From assembly GCA_003567835.1 (NCBI GenBank), contig PWYO01000332.1:1-26583 (forward strand): a stretch of DNA of 26,583 nucleotides, given 5' to 3'. Shown here one piece after another: positions 734 through 22,950 of the stretch (the stretch's first letter is position 1; every line of letters begins with the position of its first letter). The notes beneath the pieces were generated by a model. It was given only the letters and a program-made list of their open reading frames with translations, had not been told where the DNA came from and ran no database searches. The position numbers were made by a program, and so were the translations under genes. The DNA is from Actinomycetota bacterium. Its GTDB lineage: Bacteria > Actinomycetota > Humimicrobiia > Humimicrobiales > Humimicrobiaceae.

Positions 734-1495
734 ATGCAAGAAAAAACGATTTATGACCTATTGCTCTGGACCGTATTTATTTCAAGTATCCTGATTTTTG
801 TGGTCCTTTTTTTTATCAGGGCACCTTATGGCCGCCATTACCGCCAAGGATGGGGGCTTGAGACCAGTGCAAGGCTGGGTTGGATGGTCATGGAATCACC
901 GGCAGTGCTGGTTATGGCTTATGTATTTGTCATAGGCGACCGGACCACCCATTTGGCATCAGTGGTCTTTTTCCTTATTTGGATGTCTCACTATATACAG
1001 CGTACCTTCATATATCCCATGCTTATGAAAGGCGGGAAAAAGAATTTTCCCATTCTGCTTATCATTTTTGCTTTGACCTTTAACAGCATCAATGCCTACC
1101 TAAACGGCAGATACCTTTTTTATTTTTCTGCTCCCTATACCACTGCCTGGCTGACCGGCCCCCGGTTCCTGCTTGGTGTGGCCCTTTTTGCTGTAGGATT
1201 TGTGATCAATGTACACTCTGATTCCATTTTAAGAAACCTGCGGCAGGAGGATGAAAACGGATACAGCATTCCTGAGGGCGGACTGTTCCGGTATGTTTCC
1301 AATCCCAATTATTTTGGAGAGATGCTTGAGTGGATTGGCTGGGCGGTACTTACCTGGTCCCTGCCGGGCCTTGCTTTTGCTGTGTTTACCATTGCCAATC
1401 TCCTCCCCAGGGCCTGGGCCAATCACCGGTGGTATCAAAAAGAGTTCTCCTCGTATCCAGAAGATAGGAAGATCCTGATCCCTTTTATTTTTTAA
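734..1495 (+). CDS. 3-oxo-5-alpha-steroid 4-dehydrogenase (steroid 5-alpha-reductase, SRD5A1/2-like membrane enzyme)
   Basis: 253 aa, hydrophobic; motifs PYGRH, WMVMESP, HYIQR, NVHSDSILRNLR, IPEGGLFRYVSNPNYFGE, PRAWANHRWY, RKILIPFIF match the Steroid_dh family. Confidence 0.9.
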   Translation: MQEKTIYDLLLWTVFISSILIFVVLFFIRAPYGRHYRQGWGLETSARLGWMVMESPAVLVMAYVFVIGDRTTHLASVVFFLIWMSHYIQRTFIYPMLMKGGKKNFPILLIIFALTFNSINAYLNGRYLFYFSAPYTTAWLTGPRFLLGVALFAVGFVINVHSDSILRNLRQEDENGYSIPEGGLFRYVSNPNYFGEMLEWIGWAVLTWSLPGLAFAVFTIANLLPRAWANHRWYQKEFSSYPEDRKILIPFIF

Positions 1496-1560
1496 TCTTC
1501 GCAACAGGACAAAACCTCATTTTTTTTATAAAATAGCTTAATTATGGTCATGGAGTAAAA

Positions 1561-2490
1561 TTGGGTAATAATTTCAAAAAAATATTGATCATGTCCAGAC
1601 CCCCTTTCCATATTGTGGGCATACTCCCGTTTGGTCTGGGTGCCATGATGGCTTACCGGCTGCATGGGGATTTTAGCTGGCTGATATTTATTGTAAGCAC
1701 CTTAGCGGTTATAGCCATCATGCTCTCCACCTATTACAATGGAGAGTATTATGATATTAAGGAAGACCGCTTGTCTGCCCGTATGGGAAAAAATCCTTTT
1801 TCTGGGGGCAGTCAGGTGATTGCCCAAAGCCAGCTGCCCCGGACTGCTGCCAGAATGGCTTCATTGCTTAGCATAGGTTTTGCTGCGACCATGGGCATGG
1901 TGCTCCAATTTGTATTGGAAACCGGGGTATGGACCATCCCTCTGGGGCTGGCCGGCATATTATTTGGATATTTCTATTCAGCTCCTCCTTTTCGCTGGGT
2001 TTCCAGAGGTGTAGGTGAGCTCATGATCGGATTCTGCTATGGTTGGCTGCCCATAAATGTCTCTTATTACATACAAACACAGGATTTTTTGCCTTTGGCC
2101 AGCTGGATCTCTATACCGGTAGGCTTAAGCATAATCAATGTGATTCTTATCAATGAATTTCCCGATTATGAGCCGGACCGCATCTCAGGGAAAAAGACGC
2201 TGGCGGTAAGAATTGGCAAGCAGAATGCCGCAGTCCTATACTTGTGCATTTTTGTTTTGACCTGGCTTTTTTTTGTGGTGTCCTTTTGGAAGGGAGCGCC
2301 TTTGCTTAGCCTGTATATCAGTATCCCCTTCATGCTGGCTTCTCTGGCTGCCGCAGGGGCGGTTGCTTTAAAAAAATATGTTAAGCCTCAGCTTCTGGCC
2401 CTCATATGCGGGCTTACCATACTGGTCAATATTGGAATTTCTCTTTCTTATCTGATTGGGTTTGCGGCAGGGGGAGACTGGTACTTATGA
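1561..2490 (+). CDS. menA: UbiA-superfamily prenyltransferase, MenA-like (DHNA polyprenyltransferase family)
   Basis: TTG start after GGAG; 309 aa, multi-pass; Asp-rich motifs NGEYYDIKED and NEFPDYEPDRISGKKTLAVRIG, plus RPPF and YSAPP...GVGE, all MenA-like. Substrate not established. Confidence 0.75.
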   Translation: MGNNFKKILIMSRPPFHIVGILPFGLGAMMAYRLHGDFSWLIFIVSTLAVIAIMLSTYYNGEYYDIKEDRLSARMGKNPFSGGSQVIAQSQLPRTAARMASLLSIGFAATMGMVLQFVLETGVWTIPLGLAGILFGYFYSAPPFRWVSRGVGELMIGFCYGWLPINVSYYIQTQDFLPLASWISIPVGLSIINVILINEFPDYEPDRISGKKTLAVRIGKQNAAVLYLCIFVLTWLFFVVSFWKGAPLLSLYISIPFMLASLAAAGAVALKKYVKPQLLALICGLTILVNIGISLSYLIGFAAGGDWYL

Positions 2491-3722
2491 GCAGGATTTT
2501 AAAAAATATCTTCTGGCCTCCAAATCTGATAGCCAGACAGGGCGCAAGCATGGTGCTCTATAAAAATGTAGCAGGATGGAAAAGGCTGGGCAGCTGGCTT
2601 ACCGCCCACGGCATAAAGTCCCTGCCTGTAGCAGCAGGGGCAAAGGGCATGGGATGTATTGGTTTTCCGGCCCACCCTGCCTGGGAAGTCACCAATGCCT
2701 GCAACCTCAACTGCATACACTGCCATACCCATGGAGGAGGGAAGCTCAAAGATGAACTGACCACCAAAGAAGCAAAAATGGCCATAGACCAAATGGCAAA
2801 AATACCCGAATTCAGGATGCTGGTATATACCGGAGGGGAACCCTTGGTAAGGGAAGACATTTTTGAGCTATTGGATTATTCAAAAAAAGCAGGATTGATT
2901 AATGTAATTGCCAGCAACGGCATTTTGATTACCCCGCAAGTGGCTTCAAAATTAAAAAAGGTTGGAGTGGCAGGGGTGGCCATAAGCCTCGATTCAGCTG
3001 ACCCTGACATCAATAATCATATAAGGAACCATTCTGGGGCGTATACAGCCGCATTAAAAGGCATCAGGGCGGTAAAAAAATCCGGCATGCTTTTTCAGGT
3101 CAATACCACGGTCATGGAATACAATTTTGACCGGCTGGAGGAACTGGTCAGCCTGGTCAATGATTTAGATTCTGCCATCTTGCTCATGTATCAGCTGGTA
3201 CCGGTGGGCAGGGGGGGCTATATTAAAAATGCTGCTTTGAGCCGGGAAAATAATGGAAAACTGCTGAAAATGCTGGCAGAAGTCCAGCAACGTTCAAAAA
3301 CTGTGATCGAACCGGTGGCAGGTCCCCAGTACTGGGCTTATATGCTGGAAAAACACAAGAAAAATTCAAAGCATTGGCTCAAGCTGGCAGAAAAGTTATT
3401 CCATGGCTGTACTGCAGGCAGGGGACTTCTGTATGTGAAGGCCAATGGAGAGCTCTGGCCATGCCCTTTTGCAGAGGTCAGTCTGGGAAATGCGAAAAAA
3501 GACCCCATTGATGTGGTGTGGAGGCAAAACAAGATTCTGCAGCAATTGCGTCATAGAGATTTATTAAAAGGAAAATGCGGAGATTGCCGCTACAAGGAGA
3601 TATGCGGGGGATGCCGGGGAAGGGCACTGGCCTTCACCGGCGACTTGTTTGGCGAAGACAGCTCCTGCTTTCTTGACCTTAAACAAAAAGAGTCACATCG
3701 GATTCCTGCGCCTTCTCGATAA
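2487..3722 (+). CDS. Radical SAM/SPASM domain protein (AhbC/AhbD/NirJ/PqqE-like)
   Basis: CNLNCIHC (CxxxCxxC), YTGGEPL, and C-terminal SPASM cysteines GCTAG, PCPF, KCGDCRYKEICGGCRGRA, DSSC. Start moved to ATG 2487, which overlaps the upstream TGA (ATGA). Confidence 0.92.
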   Translation: MSRILKNIFWPPNLIARQGASMVLYKNVAGWKRLGSWLTAHGIKSLPVAAGAKGMGCIGFPAHPAWEVTNACNLNCIHCHTHGGGKLKDELTTKEAKMAIDQMAKIPEFRMLVYTGGEPLVREDIFELLDYSKKAGLINVIASNGILITPQVASKLKKVGVAGVAISLDSADPDINNHIRNHSGAYTAALKGIRAVKKSGMLFQVNTTVMEYNFDRLEELVSLVNDLDSAILLMYQLVPVGRGGYIKNAALSRENNGKLLKMLAEVQQRSKTVIEPVAGPQYWAYMLEKHKKNSKHWLKLAEKLFHGCTAGRGLLYVKANGELWPCPFAEVSLGNAKKDPIDVVWRQNKILQQLRHRDLLKGKCGDCRYKEICGGCRGRALAFTGDLFGEDSSCFLDLKQKESHRIPAPSR

Positions 3723-4158
3723 AAAAACCCACACCCACACAACTGTTGACTTCATTGATCATATCCTCTCTAGATATTTCCAGCACTTGCATGCTCATCT
3801 GGCACCCATAAAGGCTGACCCCCATTTCCAGGGCCATATCCCTTAACTGGGGAAGAGAAGTTGCTTTTTTGGATTTCATCATGCGGTTAAAGATCCGTCG
3901 CCCCAATCCGCCAAAACTGTATTTGGAAGGTGCGGCTTCGCTGATGTCTCCTCTTTCCAAGAAGCCCATCATTTTCCCAAGAAAACTTTTGCCGGTTCTC
4001 TTTTTCTTTTTTAATGCCCTTAATCCCCAGAAAGTAAAAAACATGGTTACTTCCATGTCTGAAGCTGCTGCTCCGGTGGCTATGATAAAAGCGGCCATTA
4101 ATTTATCCATATCCCCGCTAAAAACCACCATGGACAGTTTCTTTTTTTTATTTTTCAA
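3679..4158 (-). CDS. DsrE/DsrF/DrsH-like (DsrE2-type) putative sulfur carrier protein
   Basis: LSMVVFSGDMDKLMAAFIIATGAAA, MFFTFWGL, YGCQMSM, FIEKAQESDVTLFV. Start placed at TTG 4158 behind AAGGAGG. Confidence 0.85.
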   Translation of the reverse strand: MKNKKKKLSMVVFSGDMDKLMAAFIIATGAAASDMEVTMFFTFWGLRALKKKKRTGKSFLGKMMGFLERGDISEAAPSKYSFGGLGRRIFNRMMKSKKATSLPQLRDMALEMGVSLYGCQMSMQVLEISREDMINEVNSCVGVGFFIEKAQESDVTLFV

Positions 4159-4504
4159 TGGGTCCCTCCTTGTGTTTTTTTCCGATAACACGATCAATGA
4201 TTTCTGCTTTCAGATTTGATTCATCTCTAATTGATTCAGTGATAAGATCATAAGCTTCAATAATTTTGTGGTTGGCAATCGAATAAAAGATACGGCATCC
4301 TTTTCTGCTGCCACATACAATGCCTTTGGTTTTAAGCAGGGCCAGATGCTGGGAGATATTGGACTGGGGAAGCCCTGTTTTTTTCACAATTTGGCTTACT
4401 GTCAAAGACCGATATCTGATGGTATCAAGCACAGCTTGCCTGCCCGGGTTGGATAAGCTTTTGCATATATCAGAATGAAGATTGTAAAAAAATTTTTTTT
4501 CCAT
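4148..4504 (-). CDS. ArsR/SmtB-family transcriptional repressor
   Basis: 118 aa; KSLSNPGR...LTVSQIV...QSNISQHLALLK.KGIV...R.G..IFYSI winged HTH pattern; its stop overlaps the start region of the DsrE2-like gene. Confidence 0.92.
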   Translation of the reverse strand: MEKKFFYNLHSDICKSLSNPGRQAVLDTIRYRSLTVSQIVKKTGLPQSNISQHLALLKTKGIVCGSRKGCRIFYSIANHKIIEAYDLITESIRDESNLKAEIIDRVIGKKHKEGPIEK

Positions 4505-4540
4505 GCCCTATTGGATTATTTCCCTGTACAATATTAATAT

Positions 4541-4568
4541 TATATTAATATGTTAACATATTAATATA
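4541..4568. promoter_or_regulatory. Perfect 28-bp palindrome, likely ArsR operator
   Basis: TATATTAATATGTTAACATATTAATATA equals its own reverse complement; lies between the divergent arsR and CDF starts. Confidence 0.75.
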
Positions 4569-4620
4569 GTAATGTGAATGGAGATTTACAGAAACAGATG
4601 GAGCGATTAAAATAGAGGAA

Positions 4621-6030
4621 ATGCAACAGGGTTCTTATATGATCAAAAAAAAATTAGAAGTTTCGCCAAAGAGAAGAATTGCCGCCTTTTCTTTGGTGGT
4701 ATCCATATTTCTGGTAACCATCAAGGTGCTGGCTGCCTATTTTTCAAACAGTCTGGGCATATTTTCCGAAGCCCTCAATAATGGTTTGGACCTGGTTACG
4801 GTATTGATCACTTTTTTGGCCATCAGGATGTCTACCAAACCTGCAGACAGGGACCATACCTACGGCCACGGCAAATATGAGAACTTCTCGGCATTTATTG
4901 AACTGGTGATCATCTCCGGCCTATGCATCTTTATTATGTACAAATCCGTACAGAGGATCATAACCAGGGATTTTGAACTATTTCTGCCTTGGCCCATATT
5001 TTTGGTACTGGGGGTGTCGGTGGCCTTGAACATCATAAGGGTCATATTACTCAGGAATGCCGCAAGAAAATACCACTCATTTGCTTTTCGGGCTGAATTT
5101 ATCAATTATAGCGGGGATATTATCAGTTCGGTGGTGGTAATCGCAGGTTTGCTGCTGGCCCGGGCAGGCATGGTCCTTGCTGACCCCATTGCTTCGATTC
5201 TGGTGGCTTTGGTGGTCATGGGGTTAAGTTTCCGTCTCTCGGTTAACATTGTAAAAAATTTGCTGGATTATATTCCCAGGGAAGTAACCGGGAAAATAAG
5301 GGGGGCTGTGTCAGGCATAAAAGAGATTGCCCAAATCAATGATATAAAAGTCCACGAAGTTGGGGGCATAAAGTTTATCAACCTGGACCTTGCCATACCC
5401 AACAATGTATACCTCTCCCAGGTTGAACAGATTAAGGGAAAGGTCAGGGATGCCATAAAAAAAGAATTCCCCGATTCAAATATCATTGCAGAGATCAGAC
5501 CGGGATTCTGCAAGGATAATGTATCCGATTCTATAAAAAGCGTGGCCTTGAACCAGCCGGAGATCGAAGATATCCATAATATATATGTGTATTCGGTAGG
5601 CCCATATTTGGACATTTCTTTGCATGTAAAGCTTTCCAAAGATTTTAATTTAAAAGAAGTGGAGGCCCTGACCAAACAGACGGAAAAAAAATTAAAAGGC
5701 AAGATCGAGAACCTGCGGAGAATTTATATTCATGCAGAGGACTTATCTTCAAAGGAAGGATGGGATGATGTGACCCAGCAGTCGGGGGCGATAATCCAGC
5801 AAATCAAGCAGGAAATATCCGCTTTTATCGAACCAGTCAGCTGCCATCATTTTACGGTATTAAAAAAAGATCACTATTGCCATGTTGCGTTTCACTGCAG
5901 GCTGGACAGCAGGCTAAACATAGAACAAGCCCACAAAATCATTACCAAAGTAGAGGACTTCATTAAAACAAACATAGAAAATGTTGACGATGTATTAATC
6001 CATGTAGAACCCAATGAATATACATGCTAA
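4621..6030 (+). CDS. Cation diffusion facilitator (CDF) transporter with three tandem cytosolic dimerisation-type domains
   Basis: Hydrophobic N-terminal ~210 aa with PADRDHTYGHGKYE loop and ADPIAS; C-terminal ~250 aa shows three CTD-like repeats ending IAEIRP, IYIHAED, VLIHVEP. Confidence 0.92.
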   Translation: MQQGSYMIKKKLEVSPKRRIAAFSLVVSIFLVTIKVLAAYFSNSLGIFSEALNNGLDLVTVLITFLAIRMSTKPADRDHTYGHGKYENFSAFIELVIISGLCIFIMYKSVQRIITRDFELFLPWPIFLVLGVSVALNIIRVILLRNAARKYHSFAFRAEFINYSGDIISSVVVIAGLLLARAGMVLADPIASILVALVVMGLSFRLSVNIVKNLLDYIPREVTGKIRGAVSGIKEIAQINDIKVHEVGGIKFINLDLAIPNNVYLSQVEQIKGKVRDAIKKEFPDSNIIAEIRPGFCKDNVSDSIKSVALNQPEIEDIHNIYVYSVGPYLDISLHVKLSKDFNLKEVEALTKQTEKKLKGKIENLRRIYIHAEDLSSKEGWDDVTQQSGAIIQQIKQEISAFIEPVSCHHFTVLKKDHYCHVAFHCRLDSRLNIEQAHKIITKVEDFIKTNIENVDDVLIHVEPNEYTC

Positions 6031-7915
6031 AAAAATTGAGTTTGCCCTTACCATTGTTTCAGCAGCTTTGACGGGGACGGCCATTGCCTTCTATGTAACA
6101 GCGGGCCCCACCCCAGCAGTCAAAGTTGTCTTTTTTTCAGCGGTTGCCACCGGGCTTGCATTCACCGCCTACCGGGGCCTGAAAGGCGTGGCCCATTTCC
6201 ACTTTGATATGAATTTCCTGGTGACCATTGCTGCATTAGGGGCCTTCCTGATTGGAGAATATATAGAAGGTGCGGTGGTGGTGCTCCTGTTTAATATTGC
6301 CAATACGCTGGAAACCTTTTCTGCCAGACGGGCCAGGCATGCAGTAAAGGCATTGCTGGATCTCTCTCCGGAATACGCACATGTTTACCGCCAACACGGT
6401 CTGGCCAAGGTACACGTAAAAGAAATTGGGGTGGGTCAGATGATCTACATAAAGCCTGGAGAGCGGGTGCCTTTGGATGGCCGAATCCAAGAAGGCATCT
6501 CCTTTGTTGACCAATCCCCTTTGACTGGAGAATCCGAACCAGTGCAAAAAAGGGCAGGAAGTGTGGTATATGCGGGGAGCATAAACGGAAAAGGTTTGCT
6601 GAAAGCAGAAGTGATAAAGGATTTTGGCCGCTCTACGGTCTCCAGGATCAAGCAGCTGGTGGAAGAGGCGCAGGCCAAAAAATCAAAAAGCCAGAGGATT
6701 GTCAACCGTTTTGCTGCCGTATACACCCCTATTGTGATTGGAATTTCAGCGGCAGTCGCTGTAATCCCTCCGCTGCTTTTTTCCCAGCCATGGTCTGATT
6801 GGATATACCGTTCATTGGTTTTGCTGGTTATCTCCTGTCCCTGCGCATTGGTTATATCCACCCCGATTACCATTGCATCAGGACTAAGCCTTGCTGCCAG
6901 AAACGGGGTGCTCATAAAAGGCGGCGGCTTTTTGGAAGAGATCAGCAGGCCGGATGCGTTCATTTTTGATAAAACCGGCACCCTTACCCAGGGCAAACCC
7001 CAGGTAACCGATTTTATCGCATATCATATGCCCAAAAAAGCGTTACATGTGACCTATGCCATTGAAGATCTGTCGGAACACCATTTGGGAAAAGCCCTGA
7101 AAGAATATGCCCTGCAGCAGGGTGCAGGGGATTTGAAGGCAACAGGGGCCAGGGCTGTATCCGGTAAAGGGATTGAAGCGCTGGTTGATGGAAAAAAATA
7201 TTATTTGGGAAACCATTCATTTTTCAAGCAAAAAAAAATCTATCACGGCCGGGCTGCAGAGGATGTTCTGCAGCTGGAGTCGGCCAACAAGACTGCTGTT
7301 CTGCTGGGGGATGAGGAAAATATCATTGCTGCTTTTGGCATAAAAGATCGCATCCGTCCCCAAGCCAGGGCCGTGATTGGAAAATTGAAGGAAATGGGCG
7401 CCCGTAAAATCTATATGCTCACTGGGGATAATACAAAAACTGCTGCCATGGTCTGCAAGGAGCTTGATATCGATCAGTGTTATTCAGAACTTATGCCTGA
7501 GCATAAAATTGAGAAAATAGAACAGATCCAGGCGATTTTTCCAAAAACGGTGATGGTAGGGGATGGCATCAATGATGCGCCTGCTCTGTCCAGAGCCAAT
7601 ATCGGGATTGCCATGGGAGGAGGCGGTTCGGATGTGGCCCTGGAAAGTGCAGATATTGCGCTCATGGAAGATGATCTTGAAAAAATTCCTTTTACTTGCC
7701 GCTTAGGGCGGAGAGCGGTTGCCCTCATCAAACAAAATATTTTTATTGCCGTCTCTATAAAAATAATCTTCCTTGCCCTTGCAGCCAGCGGGCTGGCTTG
7801 GCTGTGGATGGCGGTCATAGCAGATATGGGCACTTCCATATTGGTGATCTTCAATGGGCTTCGGGCTCTAAGGTCAGAAATCAGTAATCGATCACGGTTT
7901 TCCCGCCGAACATAA
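6014..7915 (+). CDS. cadA: Heavy-metal P1B-type ATPase (CadA/ZntA-like, P1B-2 signature), no N-terminal metal-binding domain
   Basis: TGES, CPCALVIS, FDKTGTLT, EHHLG, TGDN, GDGINDAPAL, and ADMG in the last helix; overlaps the CDF stop by 17 bp. Confidence 0.92.
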   Translation: MNIHAKKIEFALTIVSAALTGTAIAFYVTAGPTPAVKVVFFSAVATGLAFTAYRGLKGVAHFHFDMNFLVTIAALGAFLIGEYIEGAVVVLLFNIANTLETFSARRARHAVKALLDLSPEYAHVYRQHGLAKVHVKEIGVGQMIYIKPGERVPLDGRIQEGISFVDQSPLTGESEPVQKRAGSVVYAGSINGKGLLKAEVIKDFGRSTVSRIKQLVEEAQAKKSKSQRIVNRFAAVYTPIVIGISAAVAVIPPLLFSQPWSDWIYRSLVLLVISCPCALVISTPITIASGLSLAARNGVLIKGGGFLEEISRPDAFIFDKTGTLTQGKPQVTDFIAYHMPKKALHVTYAIEDLSEHHLGKALKEYALQQGAGDLKATGARAVSGKGIEALVDGKKYYLGNHSFFKQKKIYHGRAAEDVLQLESANKTAVLLGDEENIIAAFGIKDRIRPQARAVIGKLKEMGARKIYMLTGDNTKTAAMVCKELDIDQCYSELMPEHKIEKIEQIQAIFPKTVMVGDGINDAPALSRANIGIAMGGGGSDVALESADIALMEDDLEKIPFTCRLGRRAVALIKQNIFIAVSIKIIFLALAASGLAWLWMAVIADMGTSILVIFNGLRALRSEISNRSRFSRRT

Positions 7916-10312: not shown

Positions 10313-11425
10313 GTGTTTTTAAAAAACCTGGAACTAAAGAATTATAGAAATTACAAACACGCCCAGTTGAATTTTGACAAGGGCACCATACTCATCACCG
10401 GTGATAATGGGCAGGGTAAAACCAATCTTTTGGAATCCATCTATTATCTTTCCTGCGGAAAATCCCATCGCGGATCCAGTACCAGGGAGATTATTCACGC
10501 CCAAGAAAATTTTGCGCTCATGCGGGCAGAAGCGGTTGCAGAGGATGGCAAAAAACGAATTGAAATAGAGCTGAGAAGGGAAGGCAACGATAAGATCAGG
10601 GTGGATAAGGTATACAGGAAGAAGAAATCCGAATTTATCAACATCATGCCTGCAGTGGTTTTTTCACCGGATGACTTAAGCTTGGTAAAGGGAGGGCCTT
10701 CGTTTAGGCGATCTTATCTGGATGGAATCCTGGATCGGGCGGCCAGGGATTTCCCGGGGCTGAGGCTTCGGTACCAAAAGACGCTTGCCCAGCGCAATTC
10801 TCTTATCAATAGCATGACCCACCATCCCCATAAAATTAATACTACCTTAAAGGTTTGGACCGAAAAACTGATAAGCTATGGGACAACCATTATGGCCTAC
10901 CGGATGAAGCTGGTGGAGGCCATAAAAGATGATTTCGCCAGCCATATGGATTATTTTTTCGGGGGCAGCGATGCACTTATGGGTTATATGGCCAGCTGGC
11001 AGCAGCAGCCGGAAAGCCTGGAGGATGTTGAGAGCCAGTACCGGAAGCATATGGAAAAGAACCTCAAAAAGGATTTGGCTATGGCCACCACCACCATAGG
11101 CCCCCATCGTGATGAAATCATCCTGAACCTGGAAGGCAGAAATTTGCGCAATTACGGCTCTCAAGGACAGCAAAGGCTGGCCGCATTGTCTATGCGACTT
11201 TGTGAGCTTATGTTTCTTTTCCAAAAAATGGGCAAGTCCCCTTTATTCTTGCTGGACGATGTTTTATCTGAACTGGATCTTTTAAGAAAAAAGCTACTAA
11301 TTGAAAAACTGGGGGATCGGTTTCAGACCATGATCACCGCCACCAATATCCATTATCTGGAAGGCGTTGATATCGATATTTGTGGAAAATATGTGGTAAG
11401 CGGGGGGTCTGTGCAAAGGTTGTAA
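10313..11425 (+). CDS. recF: DNA replication and repair protein RecF
   Basis: L.NYRNY, Walker A GDNGQGKTNLLE, VVFSPDDL, GPHRD, SQGQQR, LLDDVLSELD. Confidence 0.97.
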   Translation: MFLKNLELKNYRNYKHAQLNFDKGTILITGDNGQGKTNLLESIYYLSCGKSHRGSSTREIIHAQENFALMRAEAVAEDGKKRIEIELRREGNDKIRVDKVYRKKKSEFINIMPAVVFSPDDLSLVKGGPSFRRSYLDGILDRAARDFPGLRLRYQKTLAQRNSLINSMTHHPHKINTTLKVWTEKLISYGTTIMAYRMKLVEAIKDDFASHMDYFFGGSDALMGYMASWQQQPESLEDVESQYRKHMEKNLKKDLAMATTTIGPHRDEIILNLEGRNLRNYGSQGQQRLAALSMRLCELMFLFQKMGKSPLFLLDDVLSELDLLRKKLLIEKLGDRFQTMITATNIHYLEGVDIDICGKYVVSGGSVQRL

Positions 11426-11469
11426 TTGTCCATAATCTGCCTTGGCCTGTTAAAAACGCAACCTTACTT

Positions 11470-11478
11470 TGTTATAAT
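11470..11478 (+). promoter_or_regulatory. Extended -10 element upstream of dciA
   Basis: TGTTATAAT (TGn-TATAAT), 55 bp before the ATG. Confidence 0.5.
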
Positions 11479-11533
11479 GGCATTAATTGCCAAGATCTTT
11501 TAAGAGCCAGAAAAGGGGTGTTTAGCAGAATCG

Positions 11534-11830
11534 ATGCATGCTGAACCTTTGGACCATATATTAAAAAAAATGGTTTCTGATTTAAAAATTGGCAATCAGC
11601 TCAAACATTCCATGATTTTTAACCACTGGAAAGAAATCGTGGGCAGCCAGATCAGTGAAAAATCCAAACCCAAAAGCTTGCGGGAAGGGGTGTTGTATGT
11701 ATCTGTTGCCAATTCGACTTGGGCCAATGAGCTGGATTTGATGTCCGGCCAACTGATGGATACAATCAACAGCTATCTTGGCACCGAGCTGGTAAAAAGG
11801 ATGCGATTTAAGGCAGATCTTGGCCCCTGA
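11534..11830 (+). CDS. dciA: DUF721/DciA family protein (helicase loading factor)
   Basis: 98 aa; HWKEIVG.QI...SKP..LREGVLYVSV.NSTWA.EL; sits between recF and gyrB, the usual position for this family. Confidence 0.88.
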   Translation: MHAEPLDHILKKMVSDLKIGNQLKHSMIFNHWKEIVGSQISEKSKPKSLREGVLYVSVANSTWANELDLMSGQLMDTINSYLGTELVKRMRFKADLGP

Positions 11831-11853
11831 TTGCTAAAATTTCATGAAAAATA

Positions 11854-11862
11854 TGATATAAT
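11854..11862 (+). promoter_or_regulatory. Extended -10 element of the gyrBA promoter
   Basis: TGATATAAT in the AT-rich gap between dciA and gyrB. Confidence 0.5.
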
Positions 11863-11944
11863 ATGAAGATATAAAAATAAATATTTACCCTGAAATTACA
11901 GCATAAGGGGTAATGAGTATGCATAACCCAGGCTCTCGATTTGA

Positions 11945-13906
<1,962 letters not shown>

Positions 13907-13917
13907 GAAGGTAAGAG

Positions 13918-16350
13918 ATGGTATTTGAATTAAGAGGAAAAGTAAAGAATATTGAAATTGAATCTGAAATGCAGGAATCTTATTTGAGTTATGCCATGAG
14001 TGTCATAATAGGCAGGGCTCTGCCCGATGTAAGGGACGGCCTAAAACCGGTACACCGGCGGATTTTGTATGCCATGAAGGATATGGGCATGACCCATAAT
14101 GCCTCCTATAAAAAATGCGCCAGGATTGTGGGAGAGGTTCTGGGCAAATACCATCCCCATGGGGATACCGCTGTTTATGATTCTATGGTTCGCATGGCAC
14201 AGGATTTTTCTCACCGTTATCCCTTAATTGATGGGCATGGCAATTTTGGTTCGGTTGACGGGGATAGTGCTGCGGCTATGCGTTATACTGAGGCGAGGCT
14301 GTCCAGGATTGCTGAAGAACTGCTGGTCGATCTTGAAAAAGAGACCGTGGATTTTGTGGATAATTTTGACAGTTCGCTCAAAGAGCCGGGGGTGCTTCCT
14401 GCAAAATTTCCCAACTTATTGGTCAATGGCTCCTCAGGGATTGCCGTGGGCATGGCAACCAATATCCCTCCCCATAATTTGGGTGAGGTAGTGGATGCCA
14501 TTATCTATTCCATTGACCACCCCAAAGCAGAGATAAAAGATTTAATGAAAATTCTCAAAGGCCCTGATTTTCCCACTGGGGGGATTATCATGGGCGTGGA
14601 CGGAATTGTCCAGGCTTACCGGACAGGCAGGGGAAGAGTGGTGATCAGGGGCAGGGTGCATCTTGAACAGCATAAGAAAGGAAAACCGCAAATTATTGTC
14701 AGTGAACTCCCCTACCAGGTGAACAAGGCAAAGCAGATTGAAAAAATAGCAACTCTGGTGCGGACCAAAAAGCTGGAAGGCATTAGCGACCTCAGAGATG
14801 AATCGGATAAAGCAGGCATGCGTGTGGTCATAGAGCTAAAAAGGGATGTTGAACCCAATGTGGTTATCAACCACTTGTATAAAAACACCCAGCTGGAAGA
14901 GACTTTTGGCATTATTTTGATTGCATTGGTGGACGGGGTTCCCCGTACCCTCAACCTGATTCAGGTCATAGAAGAATATAAGAAGCACCGTTATGATGTG
15001 GTGGTAAGAAGGACCCGCTACGATCTGCGGAAAGCCCAAGAAAGGGCCCATATCTTAGAAGGGCTGCTTATTGCCCTGGACCATTTGGACGAAGTCATAA
15101 AGACCATTCGAGCTTCCAAAGATGTGCCTACTGCCAAGAAACGGTTGGTAAAAAAGTTTGAGCTTACCGGTGTGCAGGCCCAGGCCATTCTGGATATGAG
15201 ACTGCAGAGACTAACCGGCCTGGAAAGAGAAAAGGTCAAAAAAGAATATAAGGAACTGCAAAAAAAGATCAAGGATCTAAAAGAGCTCCTAGGAAACGAT
15301 ACACTTATTTTTAAAGTGATAAAAGGCGAGCTTCGGGATATGAAGAAAAAATATGCAGACCAAAGGAGAACAGATATTTCTTCAACCTCTGCAGATATGG
15401 AAATTGAGGATCTGATACCCGAAGAAGAAAATGTAATTGCAGTGACCCATTCCGGCTATATTAAAAGGGTACCTGTTACCACCTATAGAAAGCAGAGAAG
15501 AGGCGGAAGAGGGGTAAGCGGAATGAACCTGAAGGTCGATGATTTTGTCAAGCATCTGTTTATCTCCTCGACCCACCACTACATTATGTTTTTCTCCAGC
15601 AAAGGTAAGGTCTACAGGCTGAAAGTACACGAACTTCCTACCGGAAGCCGGGCTTCGAAAGGGAAAGCAATGGTCAATTTGCTTCCTTTTAGCGCAGGGG
15701 AAAAAGTTGCCGCCATCATTGCGGTAAAAGACTATAATGAAGATGAGTACCTGGTGATGTCTACCAGGAAAGGGCTGGTAAAAAAGACCCCTATAACCCA
15801 CTATGATACATCCAGAAAAGACGGCATTATCGCCATTAATATCCGTAAGGGCGATGAGCTTATTAAAGTGGAAAAATCCAGCGGAAACGATGATATTGTG
15901 CTGGTGTCTAAAAAAGGAAAATCCATTCGGTTTTCTGAAAAGGACTGCAGGCCCATGGGCAGAACTGCAACCGGCGTAAAGGGCATGGATTTGATCAAAG
16001 GAGACAAGGTCCTTGCCATGATGGTGGTAAAGGATCTGGATGCGGACTTGTTTGTTTTAACGGAAAATGGTTTTGGGAAGCGAACACCTTTGTCAAGGTA
16101 TAATAGGCAGAGCCGGGGGGGAAGAGGTGTTGTAACCCTTAAAATCAACACAAAAAAAGGAAATCTGGCTGGAGCCGGTATTGTAAAAGAAGGCCAGGAC
16201 GTCATGGTGATTGCCACCAATGGGGTACTTATCAGGATGCAGGCAAAATCGATATCCCGAACCGGCCGATCAACCCAGGGGGTCAAGATCATGAATCTTG
16301 AAAAAAACAGTAAGGTCGCATCCTTTGGAATTATTGCCTCGGAGAATTAA
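13918..16350 (+). CDS. gyrA: DNA gyrase subunit A
   Basis: [32 protein letters not shown] catalytic Tyr, and GyrA-box QRRGGRG in the C-terminal pinwheel. Confidence 0.98.
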
Positions 16351-17316: not shown

Positions 17317-17393
17317 GGGCCTATAGCTCAGCTGGTTAGAGCGCATCCCTGATAAGGATGAGGCCTCTGGTTCGAGTCCAGATAGGCCCACCA
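17317..17393 (+). tRNA. tRNA-Ile (GAT)
   Basis: Acceptor GGGCCTA/TAGGCCC, anticodon arm CATCC-CTGATAA-GGATG, T arm TCTGG-TTCGAGT-CCAGA, encoded CCA; 77 nt. Confidence 0.98.
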
Positions 17394-17447
17394 TGCGATC
17401 AATAAAATACTATGCACTAAGCCAATAAAATTTCATAAACAGGTTGT

Positions 17448-17500
17448 CATTGTTGTAAAAAGGTAGTGCAAGTTTTATGCGACACAACAATGGTTTTTTT
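17448..17500 (+). terminator. Long hairpin plus T7 tract downstream of tRNA-Ile
   Basis: CATTGTTGT (17448-17456) pairs with ACAACAATG (17484-17492), followed by GTTTTTTT. Confidence 0.5.
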
Positions 17501-17646
17501 CGAGGTTAGGAAATTAAGGCTTAGAGAAAAGACACTCCTCCATTTCTTTATGAACCCGGACAATGCATGATATTGAAGGGAAATTGTAGTTCTACTTTTA
17601 GAAGCCTCAAGGAAGCCTATCCAAGGAAATGTCAAAACATGAATGG

Positions 17647-17670
17647 GAAGGCTCGCCTTCTGCTTTTTTT
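17647..17670 (+). terminator. Intrinsic terminator
   Basis: GAAGG-CTCG-CCTTC followed by TGCTTTTTTT. Confidence 0.6.
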
Positions 17671-17968
17671 ATGTTGTGTTTTTAGATCTTGGTTATAAAA
17701 ATCTTTGGGTGCTGCGCATTGCTAAAATTCCTCCCCTGTTCACAAAAAGTACTGTCAATATGCTGTATGGGGTTGGAAATTACAGAAAATCATGGCGGCT
17801 TTAACAGATTGTCTGGTTTTGACAACCATGGAAAGGTCTGTTAGAAAAAATATTGACAACAATAATCAGGATCTGGGCTTGCTGCAAAAACCTGTTTGTC
17901 TTCTTTGATAAGCAAATTAAAATGTTTATTTCTAAGTGGTTTCTGGAGGATAAAAGATATCTTAGAAG

Positions 17969-17997
17969 TTGATTAAATCCACAATTATTGTTACTAT
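17969..17997 (+). promoter_or_regulatory. Sigma70-type promoter of tRNA-Ala(GGC)
   Basis: TTGATT-17 nt-TACTAT with extended TG, ending 9 nt before the tRNA. Confidence 0.55.
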
Positions 17998-18006
17998 TTC
18001 ACCCGT

Positions 18007-18081
18007 GGGGATGTAGTTCAGTGGGAGAACGCTTGTCTGGCAGACAAGAGGTCGGCGGTTCAAGTCCGCTCATCTCCACCA
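18007..18081 (+). tRNA. tRNA-Ala (GGC)
   Basis: Acceptor GGGGATG/CATCTCC with G3:U70, anticodon arm CTTGT-CTGGCAG-ACAAG, T loop TTCAAGT, CCA; 75 nt. Confidence 0.98.
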
Positions 18082-18099
18082 TAAATCTTTTTTTTATCC

Positions 18100-18128
18100 T
18101 GGACAAGGATTTTATTATCTGTTATATT
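18100..18128 (+). promoter_or_regulatory. Sigma70-type promoter of tRNA-Ala(TGC)
   Basis: TGGACA-17 nt-TATATT with extended TG. Confidence 0.55.
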
Positions 18129-18147
18129 CGTTTCTCGCACATTTTGT

Positions 18148-18223
18148 GGGGGTGTAGCTCAGTTGGGAGAGCGCCTGCCTTGCAAGCAGGAGGTCAGCGG
18201 TTCGACTCCGCTCATCTCCACCA
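18148..18223 (+). tRNA. tRNA-Ala (TGC)
   Basis: Acceptor GGGGGTG/CATCTCC with G3:U70, anticodon arm CCTGC-CTTGCAA-GCAGG, T loop TTCGACT, CCA; 76 nt. Confidence 0.98.
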
Positions 18224-22326: not shown

Positions 22327-22950
22327 ATGAGTTTTAGTAAAATGGCCAAAAAAGAGAAGACTAATCAGGAAGTTTTGTTGTCGGTGTACGATGATTATTT
22401 CTGCCAGCTGGCAAAAAAGGATTTAAGCCAGGTGGTGAAAAATTCTGGTTCGGTTTTAAAGGACGGATGCATCGAAGTCGACTTTTATAACCAGAAGCAT
22501 AGGGTAGACATAGATCAGAAAATGATAAAAAAGAAGGACGGCCGAACTGCAGATCCTTACACCTCCTCTATGATCCTCCATTATTTGATCCATGCCAAGG
22601 GAACCCCCCGATCCGGGAAATGGATTCCGTACAGGGAGCTTCCCGACGGGCTTTTTTATGCCCAAACCATTGAAGGGGTTCTGGCGCCGCTGGTCCAAAC
22701 GTATGGCAGGAATCTGGAAGCCTTTTACAGCCAGGCTGAAAAATTGGGTGCAAGAAGTAGCAAGGAATTTGATTGCGGAGTGGTTATCCACAGTTTTAAA
22801 AAGGTACCCCTGCTGCTGATTATGTATCCAGCTGATGAAGAATTTGATGCTGAAGCAAATATTTTGTTTGACAGCAGTATATCCGATTACCTGAAAACCG
22901 ATATCGTAAAGCTGATTACGGTCTATACGGTACAACTTTTCTTAAAATAA
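22327..22950 (+). CDS. DUF3786 domain-containing protein
   Basis: ILHYL...G....GKWIPYRELPDG.FY, F.KVPL.....PADEEFDAEANILFDSS pattern. Confidence 0.82.
   Translation: MSFSKMAKKEKTNQEVLLSVYDDYFCQLAKKDLSQVVKNSGSVLKDGCIEVDFYNQKHRVDIDQKMIKKKDGRTADPYTSSMILHYLIHAKGTPRSGKWIPYRELPDGLFYAQTIEGVLAPLVQTYGRNLEAFYSQAEKLGARSSKEFDCGVVIHSFKKVPLLLIMYPADEEFDAEANILFDSSISDYLKTDIVKLITVYTVQLFLK

Follow-up and report, generated by a model that had tools for sequence, protein, structure and literature searches.

Three co-oriented genes lie near the start of a stretch of 26,583 nucleotides (positions 1 to 26,583 of contig PWYO01000332.1, assembly GCA_003567835.1; hereafter the window) from an Actinomycetota bacterium of the family Humimicrobiaceae, whose genome (G000) is a fragmented metagenome-assembled genome (MAG) of 1.9 Mb in 351 contigs, about 80% complete. 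They code for a protein of the steroid 5-alpha-reductase family (Steroid_dh), a UbiA-superfamily membrane prenyltransferase (UbiA) and a radical S-adenosylmethionine (SAM) enzyme with a SPASM domain (rSAM) (Table 1). An earlier note, made from the letters of the window, had joined the three into a single candidate system that might make an unusual quinone, cofactor or membrane lipid carrying a prenyl group. Its description of the locus was accurate: the three open reading frames (ORFs), the 65-bp gap between the first two and the ATGA overlap between the last two all lie on the forward strand where the note had placed them, and searches with Pfam and NCBIfam profiles found no men, mqn, ubi or haem family among the remaining ORFs of the window, as it had said. 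Comparison with other genomes divides the trio. The UbiA and rSAM genes very probably form a real two-gene unit that is independent of Steroid_dh, and Steroid_dh is a local neighbour outside this conserved cassette. The cassette is rated here as a form of UbiA-based synthesis of prenyl lipids or quinones in which a radical SAM enzyme is an obligatory and so far undescribed partner.

The evidence for the two-gene unit comes from two sets of genomes. Each of the three proteins was searched for in 40 related genomes; nothing concluded here depends on the unpublished genome G032. Orthologues of UbiA (53–69% identity) were found in G001, G004, G007, G015, G018 and G019, and orthologues of rSAM (52–73% identity) in exactly the same genomes, always immediately downstream. 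In a profile-guided scan with each species represented by one genome, 312 genomes were then found to encode a UbiA relative; the best 80 loci were inspected, 77 of which had room downstream, and at 73 of these 77 the rSAM gene directly follows UbiA on the same strand, an adjacency far beyond chance. Tight spacing of the two genes is the rule in the homologous loci, UbiA and rSAM have correlated pairwise distances (Pearson 0.87), and one protein of 752 aa from a Joint Genome Institute (JGI) metagenome, P0121, unites the UbiA, rSAM and SPASM parts in a natural fusion. Almost all carriers are uncultured anaerobes, and among them are Actinomycetota, Smithella and other Syntrophales, Syntrophorhabdaceae, Desulfobacterales, Anaerolineae/Thermoflexales, Dehalococcoidia, Chloroflexota, Aminicenantes and WOR-3, with one archaeon. 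Across this range the cassette is inherited as a block; its flanks are unrelated between Syntrophales, Thermodesulfobacteriota and Dehalococcoidia, and no third conserved gene accompanies it, since all-against-all clustering of 933 neighbour ORFs yielded only lineage-specific synteny (Smithella group) and generic ABC ATPases.

The reductase fares differently. Steroid_dh stands beside the pair at two of the 80 loci, both from the window's genus, and the three-gene system of the earlier note thus gave way under the very comparison of gene neighbourhoods that the note had proposed. What held up of the joint action it had suggested is the part played by UbiA and the SPASM enzyme, which are strictly co-inherited, adjacent across phyla, fused once and occasionally accompanied by MenG/UbiE or a polyprenyl synthase; the reductase as third member fell. 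In the same-genus genome G002, which lacks the pair, the iron-containing alcohol dehydrogenase (Fe-ADH), Steroid_dh and DsrE2 genes are contiguous, with about 35 bp at the place of the pair; the pair thus shows the behaviour of an insertion/deletion cassette. A rapid, unfinished tree built from the two concatenated sequences places the Actinomycetota cassettes in one well-supported clade; the cassette is therefore an old one in this lineage and has undergone repeated loss. The cassettes of loci L047 and L051 are near-identical (branch lengths 0.04–0.06) and come from MAGs labelled Chloroflexota and Deltaproteobacteria, which suggests recent transfer or mis-binning; a fragment of an IS91 transposase lies upstream of the cassette in L047.

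Table 1. Genes and other features of the window (positions on the forward strand of the contig).
Feature	Position	Strand	Basis and remarks
Steroid_dh, steroid 5-alpha-reductase family (253 aa)	734-1495	+	PF02544, 187.4 bits vs gathering 22.6, E 2e-55
Spacer Steroid_dh/UbiA, 65 bp	1496-1560	+	Between the stop at 1495 and the TTG start at 1561
UbiA-superfamily membrane prenyltransferase (309 aa), MenA/UBIAD1-like, first cassette gene	1561-2490	+	PF01040, 98.8 bits vs 34.2, E 4e-28
ATGA stop/start overlap UbiA/rSAM	2487-2490	+	TGA 2488-2490 over ATG 2487-2489, read in the sequence
Radical SAM/SPASM enzyme (411 aa), second cassette gene	2487-3722	+	Radical_SAM PF04055 and SPASM PF13186 (Pfam), both over cut-off
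DsrE2-like gene	3679-4197	-	PF13686, under the cut-off of the NCBIfam DsrE2 model; convergent 44-nt overlap with the rSAM 3' end
recF-dciA-gyrB-gyrA block	10313-16350		DciA PF05258 at 11534-11830
tRNA genes Ile-GAT, Ala-GGC, Ala-TGC	17317-18223		Low-GC stretch, no rRNA genes near
DUF3786 protein	22327-22950		PF12654, 143 bits; adjoins PDH E1 genes

No UbiA-family gene besides UbiA, whose TTG start is preceded by GGAG, was found in G000. Membership of the PF01040 superfamily is clear from both the gathering score and the two Asp-rich motifs, NGEYYDxxxD and NEFPDYxxD...K, which do not vary among 19 homologues taken from several phyla (mean column identity 66%). The best NCBIfam matches of the protein are MenA models, all of them below cut-off (NF004751, 98.3 vs 264 bits; TIGR00751, 57.8 vs 102.15), and its sole PDB sequence match is UBIAD1 (8djk, E 1.4e-7). 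As judged from these profiles and motifs, UbiA represents a separate, highly conserved MenA/UBIAD1-like clade. It shares with MenA and UBIAD1 its best profile and structure matches, a MenA-style second motif (D..xD..GK..L.VR.G), a length of about 300 aa and several predicted membrane spans; it differs from them in scoring below every MenA cut-off, in forming a tight clade of its own, in being followed by an rSAM gene and in occurring in genomes without MenB or MqnA/D. Identity with canonical MenA was considered and rejected, given that both equivalog cut-offs failed and that no pathway forming 1,4-dihydroxy-2-naphthoate (DHNA), through either MenB over cut-off or full-score MqnA/D, was found in the pair genomes examined.

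The rSAM reading frame opens at either 2406 or 2487, the latter being backed by an alignment in which 20 homologues start at that position. Conservation across the clade is as high as in UbiA (mean column identity 65%), and the cluster motif C72xxxC76xxC79 and seven SPASM cysteines (C308, C326, C364, C367, C373, C376 and C394) are invariant in 21 sequences. Its best curated matches fall below cut-off: AhbD (TIGR04545) at 289.7 of 500, NirJ2 at 288.5 of 500 and TIGR04053 at 263 of 395. The protein shares with AhbD and its relatives NirJ2, AhbC, NirJ and TIGR04053 the radical SAM core and the seven-Cys SPASM domain, and these give its highest curated scores; it differs from AhbD by the wide shortfall in score, by an additional N-terminal extension and by its occurrence in genomes that are often without HemB. 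The extension, conserved, about 65 aa long and specific to the family, ends just before the radical SAM cluster motif in a loop, GMGCIGxPxHP, with an invariant C57 and H63. An AlphaFold (AF2) model of the protein (pLDDT 85, pTM 0.86) predicts three helices and no beta strands in this segment, which in the P0121 fusion forms the linker to the UbiA domain; the soluble Fe-S enzyme may well be docked through this extension on the membrane or on its UbiA partner. The fold search returned generic SPASM enzymes only (SkfB, PqqE, SuiB, anSME and BlsE), with no pointer to a substrate, and the PDB sequence search returned no AhbD-like structure. A role as a maturase of ribosomally synthesized and post-translationally modified peptides was rejected, as no conserved third ORF could serve as precursor, the all-helical extension is not of the PqqD/RRE type, and the scores are low on both PqqE (114 vs 381) and MftC (154 vs 265).

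The genomic surroundings of the cassette point toward quinones. In L047, L051 and L064 the next gene 3' of rSAM codes for a MenG/UbiE that scores over the TIGR01934 cut-off, with a 4-nt gap or overlap in two of them, and a polyprenyl diphosphate synthase gene directly follows rSAM in L067, L080, L100 and L104. The MenG/UbiE proteins of L051 and L064 are only 28–30% identical to that of L047 (28% for L051), which suggests separate recruitments. Such loci are reminiscent of quinone operons of the hepS-menG-hepT type, from which they differ in that these genes are accessory to the cassette (7 of 77 loci) and absent from the window. Within the window's family, three kinds of UbiA gene were found, never together in one of the genomes searched: the pair type in 7 genomes; a MenA that passes TIGR00751 (116.2) and is convergent with MenG in 6–7 genomes, MenG beside it being confirmed in four; and a MenA adjoining MenB or MenG in 5 genomes. 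G001 and G007 keep a stand-alone MenG/UbiE, the pair-type UbiA being the only UbiA gene found there, and G007 and G015 encode a full-score NuoH (about 395 bits) with no other quinone route found. Neither MenB over cut-off nor a full-length, full-score MqnA/D (PF02621) was found in the pair genomes searched, which were 7 from the family and 5 from other phyla, two of the latter being closed chromosomes. UbiD was likewise not found in any pair genome examined and is present in futalosine-type relatives (f2). As a separate observation, three relatives without the cassette (G009, G003 and G002; loci L018, L019 and L020) have a MenA that passes TIGR00751 and is convergent and overlapping with MenG/UbiE, no MenB or MqnA/D being found in them, an arrangement that looks like a two-step DHNA-salvage module.

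The reading favoured here, to which we give about an even chance, is that the cassette is an anaerobic module for a prenylated quinol-type membrane electron carrier. At the membrane, UbiA would first prenylate an aromatic head group with a polyprenyl chain. The rSAM enzyme, held at the membrane or at its partner by the helical N-terminal extension, would then carry out a radical step on the prenylated intermediate, independently of oxygen and of prenylated flavin mononucleotide (prFMN). The likeliest such step would be an oxidative decarboxylation or a side-chain cleavage, with a ring-forming C-C step as the alternative. AhbD, AhbC and NirJ catalyse radical decarboxylation or side-chain removal, and it is because of this chemistry among its relatives that a decarboxylative or oxidative step is proposed for rSAM. 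Where the gene is present, MenG/UbiE would C-methylate the ring, and the outcome would be a quinol-type carrier whose synthesis needs neither the Men nor the futalosine pathway, nor UbiD. This sequence of steps is an inference. A related known system is the futalosine pathway, an oxygen-independent quinone synthesis that combines a UbiA prenyltransferase with radical SAM chemistry. The cassette resembles that pathway (MqnP, the radical SAM enzymes MqnC and MqnE, and the UbiD-type MqnL) in both respects and departs from it in that MqnC and MqnE are not SPASM enzymes and that no full-score MqnA/D or UbiD was found in the pair genomes.

A bolder form of this proposal, put forward only tentatively, is that UbiA and rSAM, with MenG/UbiE where present, are the core of a third oxygen-independent route to quinones or quinone-like carriers, operating in anaerobes that lack Men, futalosine and UbiD genes, with rSAM docked to UbiA while it decarboxylates a prenylated aromatic intermediate, or closes a ring in it, by radical chemistry. 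The earlier note had not recognised its trio as a described pathway, and a literature search for UbiA or MenA together with a radical SAM/SPASM enzyme returned no paper describing the pair. A 2026 survey of bacterial quinone pathways lists only ubiquinone (UQ), rhodoquinone (RQ), plastoquinone (PQ), methyl-plastoquinone (mPQ) and menaquinone (MK), the last made by the Men or futalosine pathway, and does not include the pair (PMC13386864).

Several points weigh against the electron-carrier reading. The case is built on the comparison of genes and genomes rather than on biochemistry, and the genomes compared are related, hence non-independent, samples, many of them incomplete MAGs. Two genes would be insufficient for the de novo synthesis of a naphthoquinone head group, which leaves the acceptor of the prenyl chain unexplained. 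MenG/UbiE was found in only 5 of the 12 pair genomes examined and is adjacent to the pair at only 3 of 77 loci. Weak matches to PF02621 (VitK2_biosynth) occur in G000, G004 and G015 at 32–55 bits, over the 26-bit Pfam cut-off; full matches reach 229–256 bits, and the weak ones are probably related binding proteins. The pair genomes of Syntrophales also carry a second, near-cut-off MenA-like gene, so that MenA and the pair, although mutually exclusive within the Actinomycetota family, are not so everywhere. Lastly, the fusion is a single record.

Among the other explanations, the one that survives best, and that is unlikely without being negligible, is a non-quinone isoprenoid lipid or cofactor, for example a prenylated membrane lipid of the glycerol or ether type, cross-linked or cyclised by rSAM in the manner of Tes/GDGT-MAS, or a prenylated metabolite without a redox function. 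Lipid synthases occur within the UbiA superfamily, radical SAM enzymes act on isoprenoid lipids, and GDGT-MAS (7tol/7tom), which like Tes is a radical SAM enzyme that bears auxiliary clusters and acts on a lipid, is among both the sequence and the fold matches of rSAM. The absence of MenG from most pair genomes also suits such a product, and the adjacency of a polyprenyl synthase fits any isoprenoid. The similarity to GDGT-MAS, however, is confined to the radical SAM core (query residues 67–170; TM-score 0.43), and UbiA, which scores best on the MenA models (98 bits), reaches only 22–23 bits on the prenyltransferase/UbiA-like models PRK12884 and TIGR01475. The MenG/UbiE neighbours and the exclusion of MenA within the family likewise point to quinones.

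A further account, judged improbable, makes UbiA the MenA of this lineage, working on salvaged 1,4-dihydroxy-2-naphthoate, with rSAM either tailoring menaquinone or making the head group from a salvaged precursor. The MenA-like character of UbiA agrees with it, as do the pairless relatives, which appear to run a MenA+MenG salvage without MenB or Mqn enzymes, and the replacement of this MenA+MenG module by the pair within the family. Two observations tell against it: UbiA stays at 57.8 under a TIGR00751 cut-off that the MenA of these relatives passes, and the strict coupling to rSAM across phyla, together with the fusion, argues for an obligatory rSAM step rather than optional tailoring.

The trio as one pathway, in which Steroid_dh would saturate a C=C bond in the prenylated product, the prenyl tail being one possible site, is a very improbable reading. 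On profile and structure-sequence scores, Steroid_dh clearly belongs to the SRD5A family of membrane reductases, and it is conserved throughout the window's family: it matches the bacterial SRD5A structure 7c83 at 253.8 bits (residues 19–252) and human SRD5A2 (7bw1) at 176 bits, and resembles both in its nearly full-length match and its clear PF02544 membership. SRD5A-family enzymes include polyprenol reductases, which favours the idea, and in G000, G001 and G004 the three genes are co-oriented with short gaps. The 65-bp spacer holds no terminator-like hairpin that could be found, and two weak promoter-like matches (9/12) at 1506-1534 and 1545-1572 belong to a regional count that is not above that of shuffled sequences. 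As no terminator is predicted between them, read-through from Steroid_dh into the cassette is possible in the window's genus; such read-through would be hitch-hiking, and is no evidence of shared function. The distribution of the reductase speaks against the trio. Among the relatives with the pair, it is adjacent only in G001 and G004 of the window's genus, where the outer flanks (Fe-ADH and DsrE2) are syntenic too; Steroid_dh is on another contig in G007, G018 and G019, is only a fragment in G015, and was not found over cut-off in 4 of the 5 pair genomes from other phyla. Conversely, an orthologue is present in 19 of 24 family genomes, 12 of these 19 being without the pair, the G002 locus described above being one such case. 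It occurs, for instance, in G006, G008, G010, G016 and G022, where no UbiA relative was found, and for this reason its substrate cannot depend on the cassette. Its stable partner is instead the divergent Fe-ADH gene, kept also in another genus (G009). Unlike the likeness to 7c83 and 7bw1, then, a link to the cassette is lacking, and Steroid_dh should not be annotated as a member of the cassette pathway.

Least credible of all is a tetrapyrrole pathway, in which an AhbD-like rSAM would make or alter haem and UbiA would farnesylate it as in haem O: AhbD and NirJ2 are the nearest curated relatives of rSAM, and haem O and chlorophyll synthases are UbiA enzymes, but HemB was not found in the pair genomes G001 (97% complete), G007 (92%) and G000, and G004 has a separate AhbC-HemB-AhbD-AhbA cluster (L122, G004:C196; the alternative haem pathway) whose AhbD scores 496 bits without an N-terminal extension (AhbD of G033: 515), so that a tetrapyrrole substrate is unlikely; UbiA moreover reaches only about 41 bits on the chlorophyll synthase model, and no haem O synthase model is among its 16 NCBIfam matches. 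The identity of rSAM itself as AhbD haem b synthase was rejected on its score, on the lack of sirohaem or haem gene context in the window and on the true AhbD of G004 being a separate gene.

The rest of the window has a varied content. Beyond the DsrE2-like gene, positions 4148-7915 hold genes for an ArsR-type regulator, a cation diffusion facilitator (CDF) efflux protein, in which ZT_dimer stretches occur three times, and a P-type ATPase, and the DsrE2-like/ArsR/CDF/P-type ATPase block looks like a metal-homeostasis cluster. The recF-dciA-gyrB-gyrA block, together with a GC skew that is positive from about 10 kb onward, indicates that the window probably lies near a replication origin. Other genes code for Fe-ADH, LysE, a fumarylacetoacetate (FAA) hydrolase, phosphotransferase system (PTS) and 1-phosphofructokinase (1-PFK) proteins and the E1 component of pyruvate dehydrogenase (PDH). 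Rfam and tRNA scans found nothing close to the three genes.

The electron-carrier reading would matter most for anaerobes of the subsurface and of syntrophic communities, many of which need a membrane electron carrier; those examined here, such as Smithella and other Syntrophales, Syntrophorhabdaceae, Anaerolineae, WOR-3 and Actinomycetota with small genomes, are without both known menaquinone pathways. If the reading is true, such a carrier could be made or modified by a compact module that at least 312 species genomes encode, a gap in the maps of quinone biosynthesis would be filled, SPASM radical SAM chemistry would gain a new reaction type, and the cassette would serve in uncultured lineages as a genomic marker of respiration-like metabolism.

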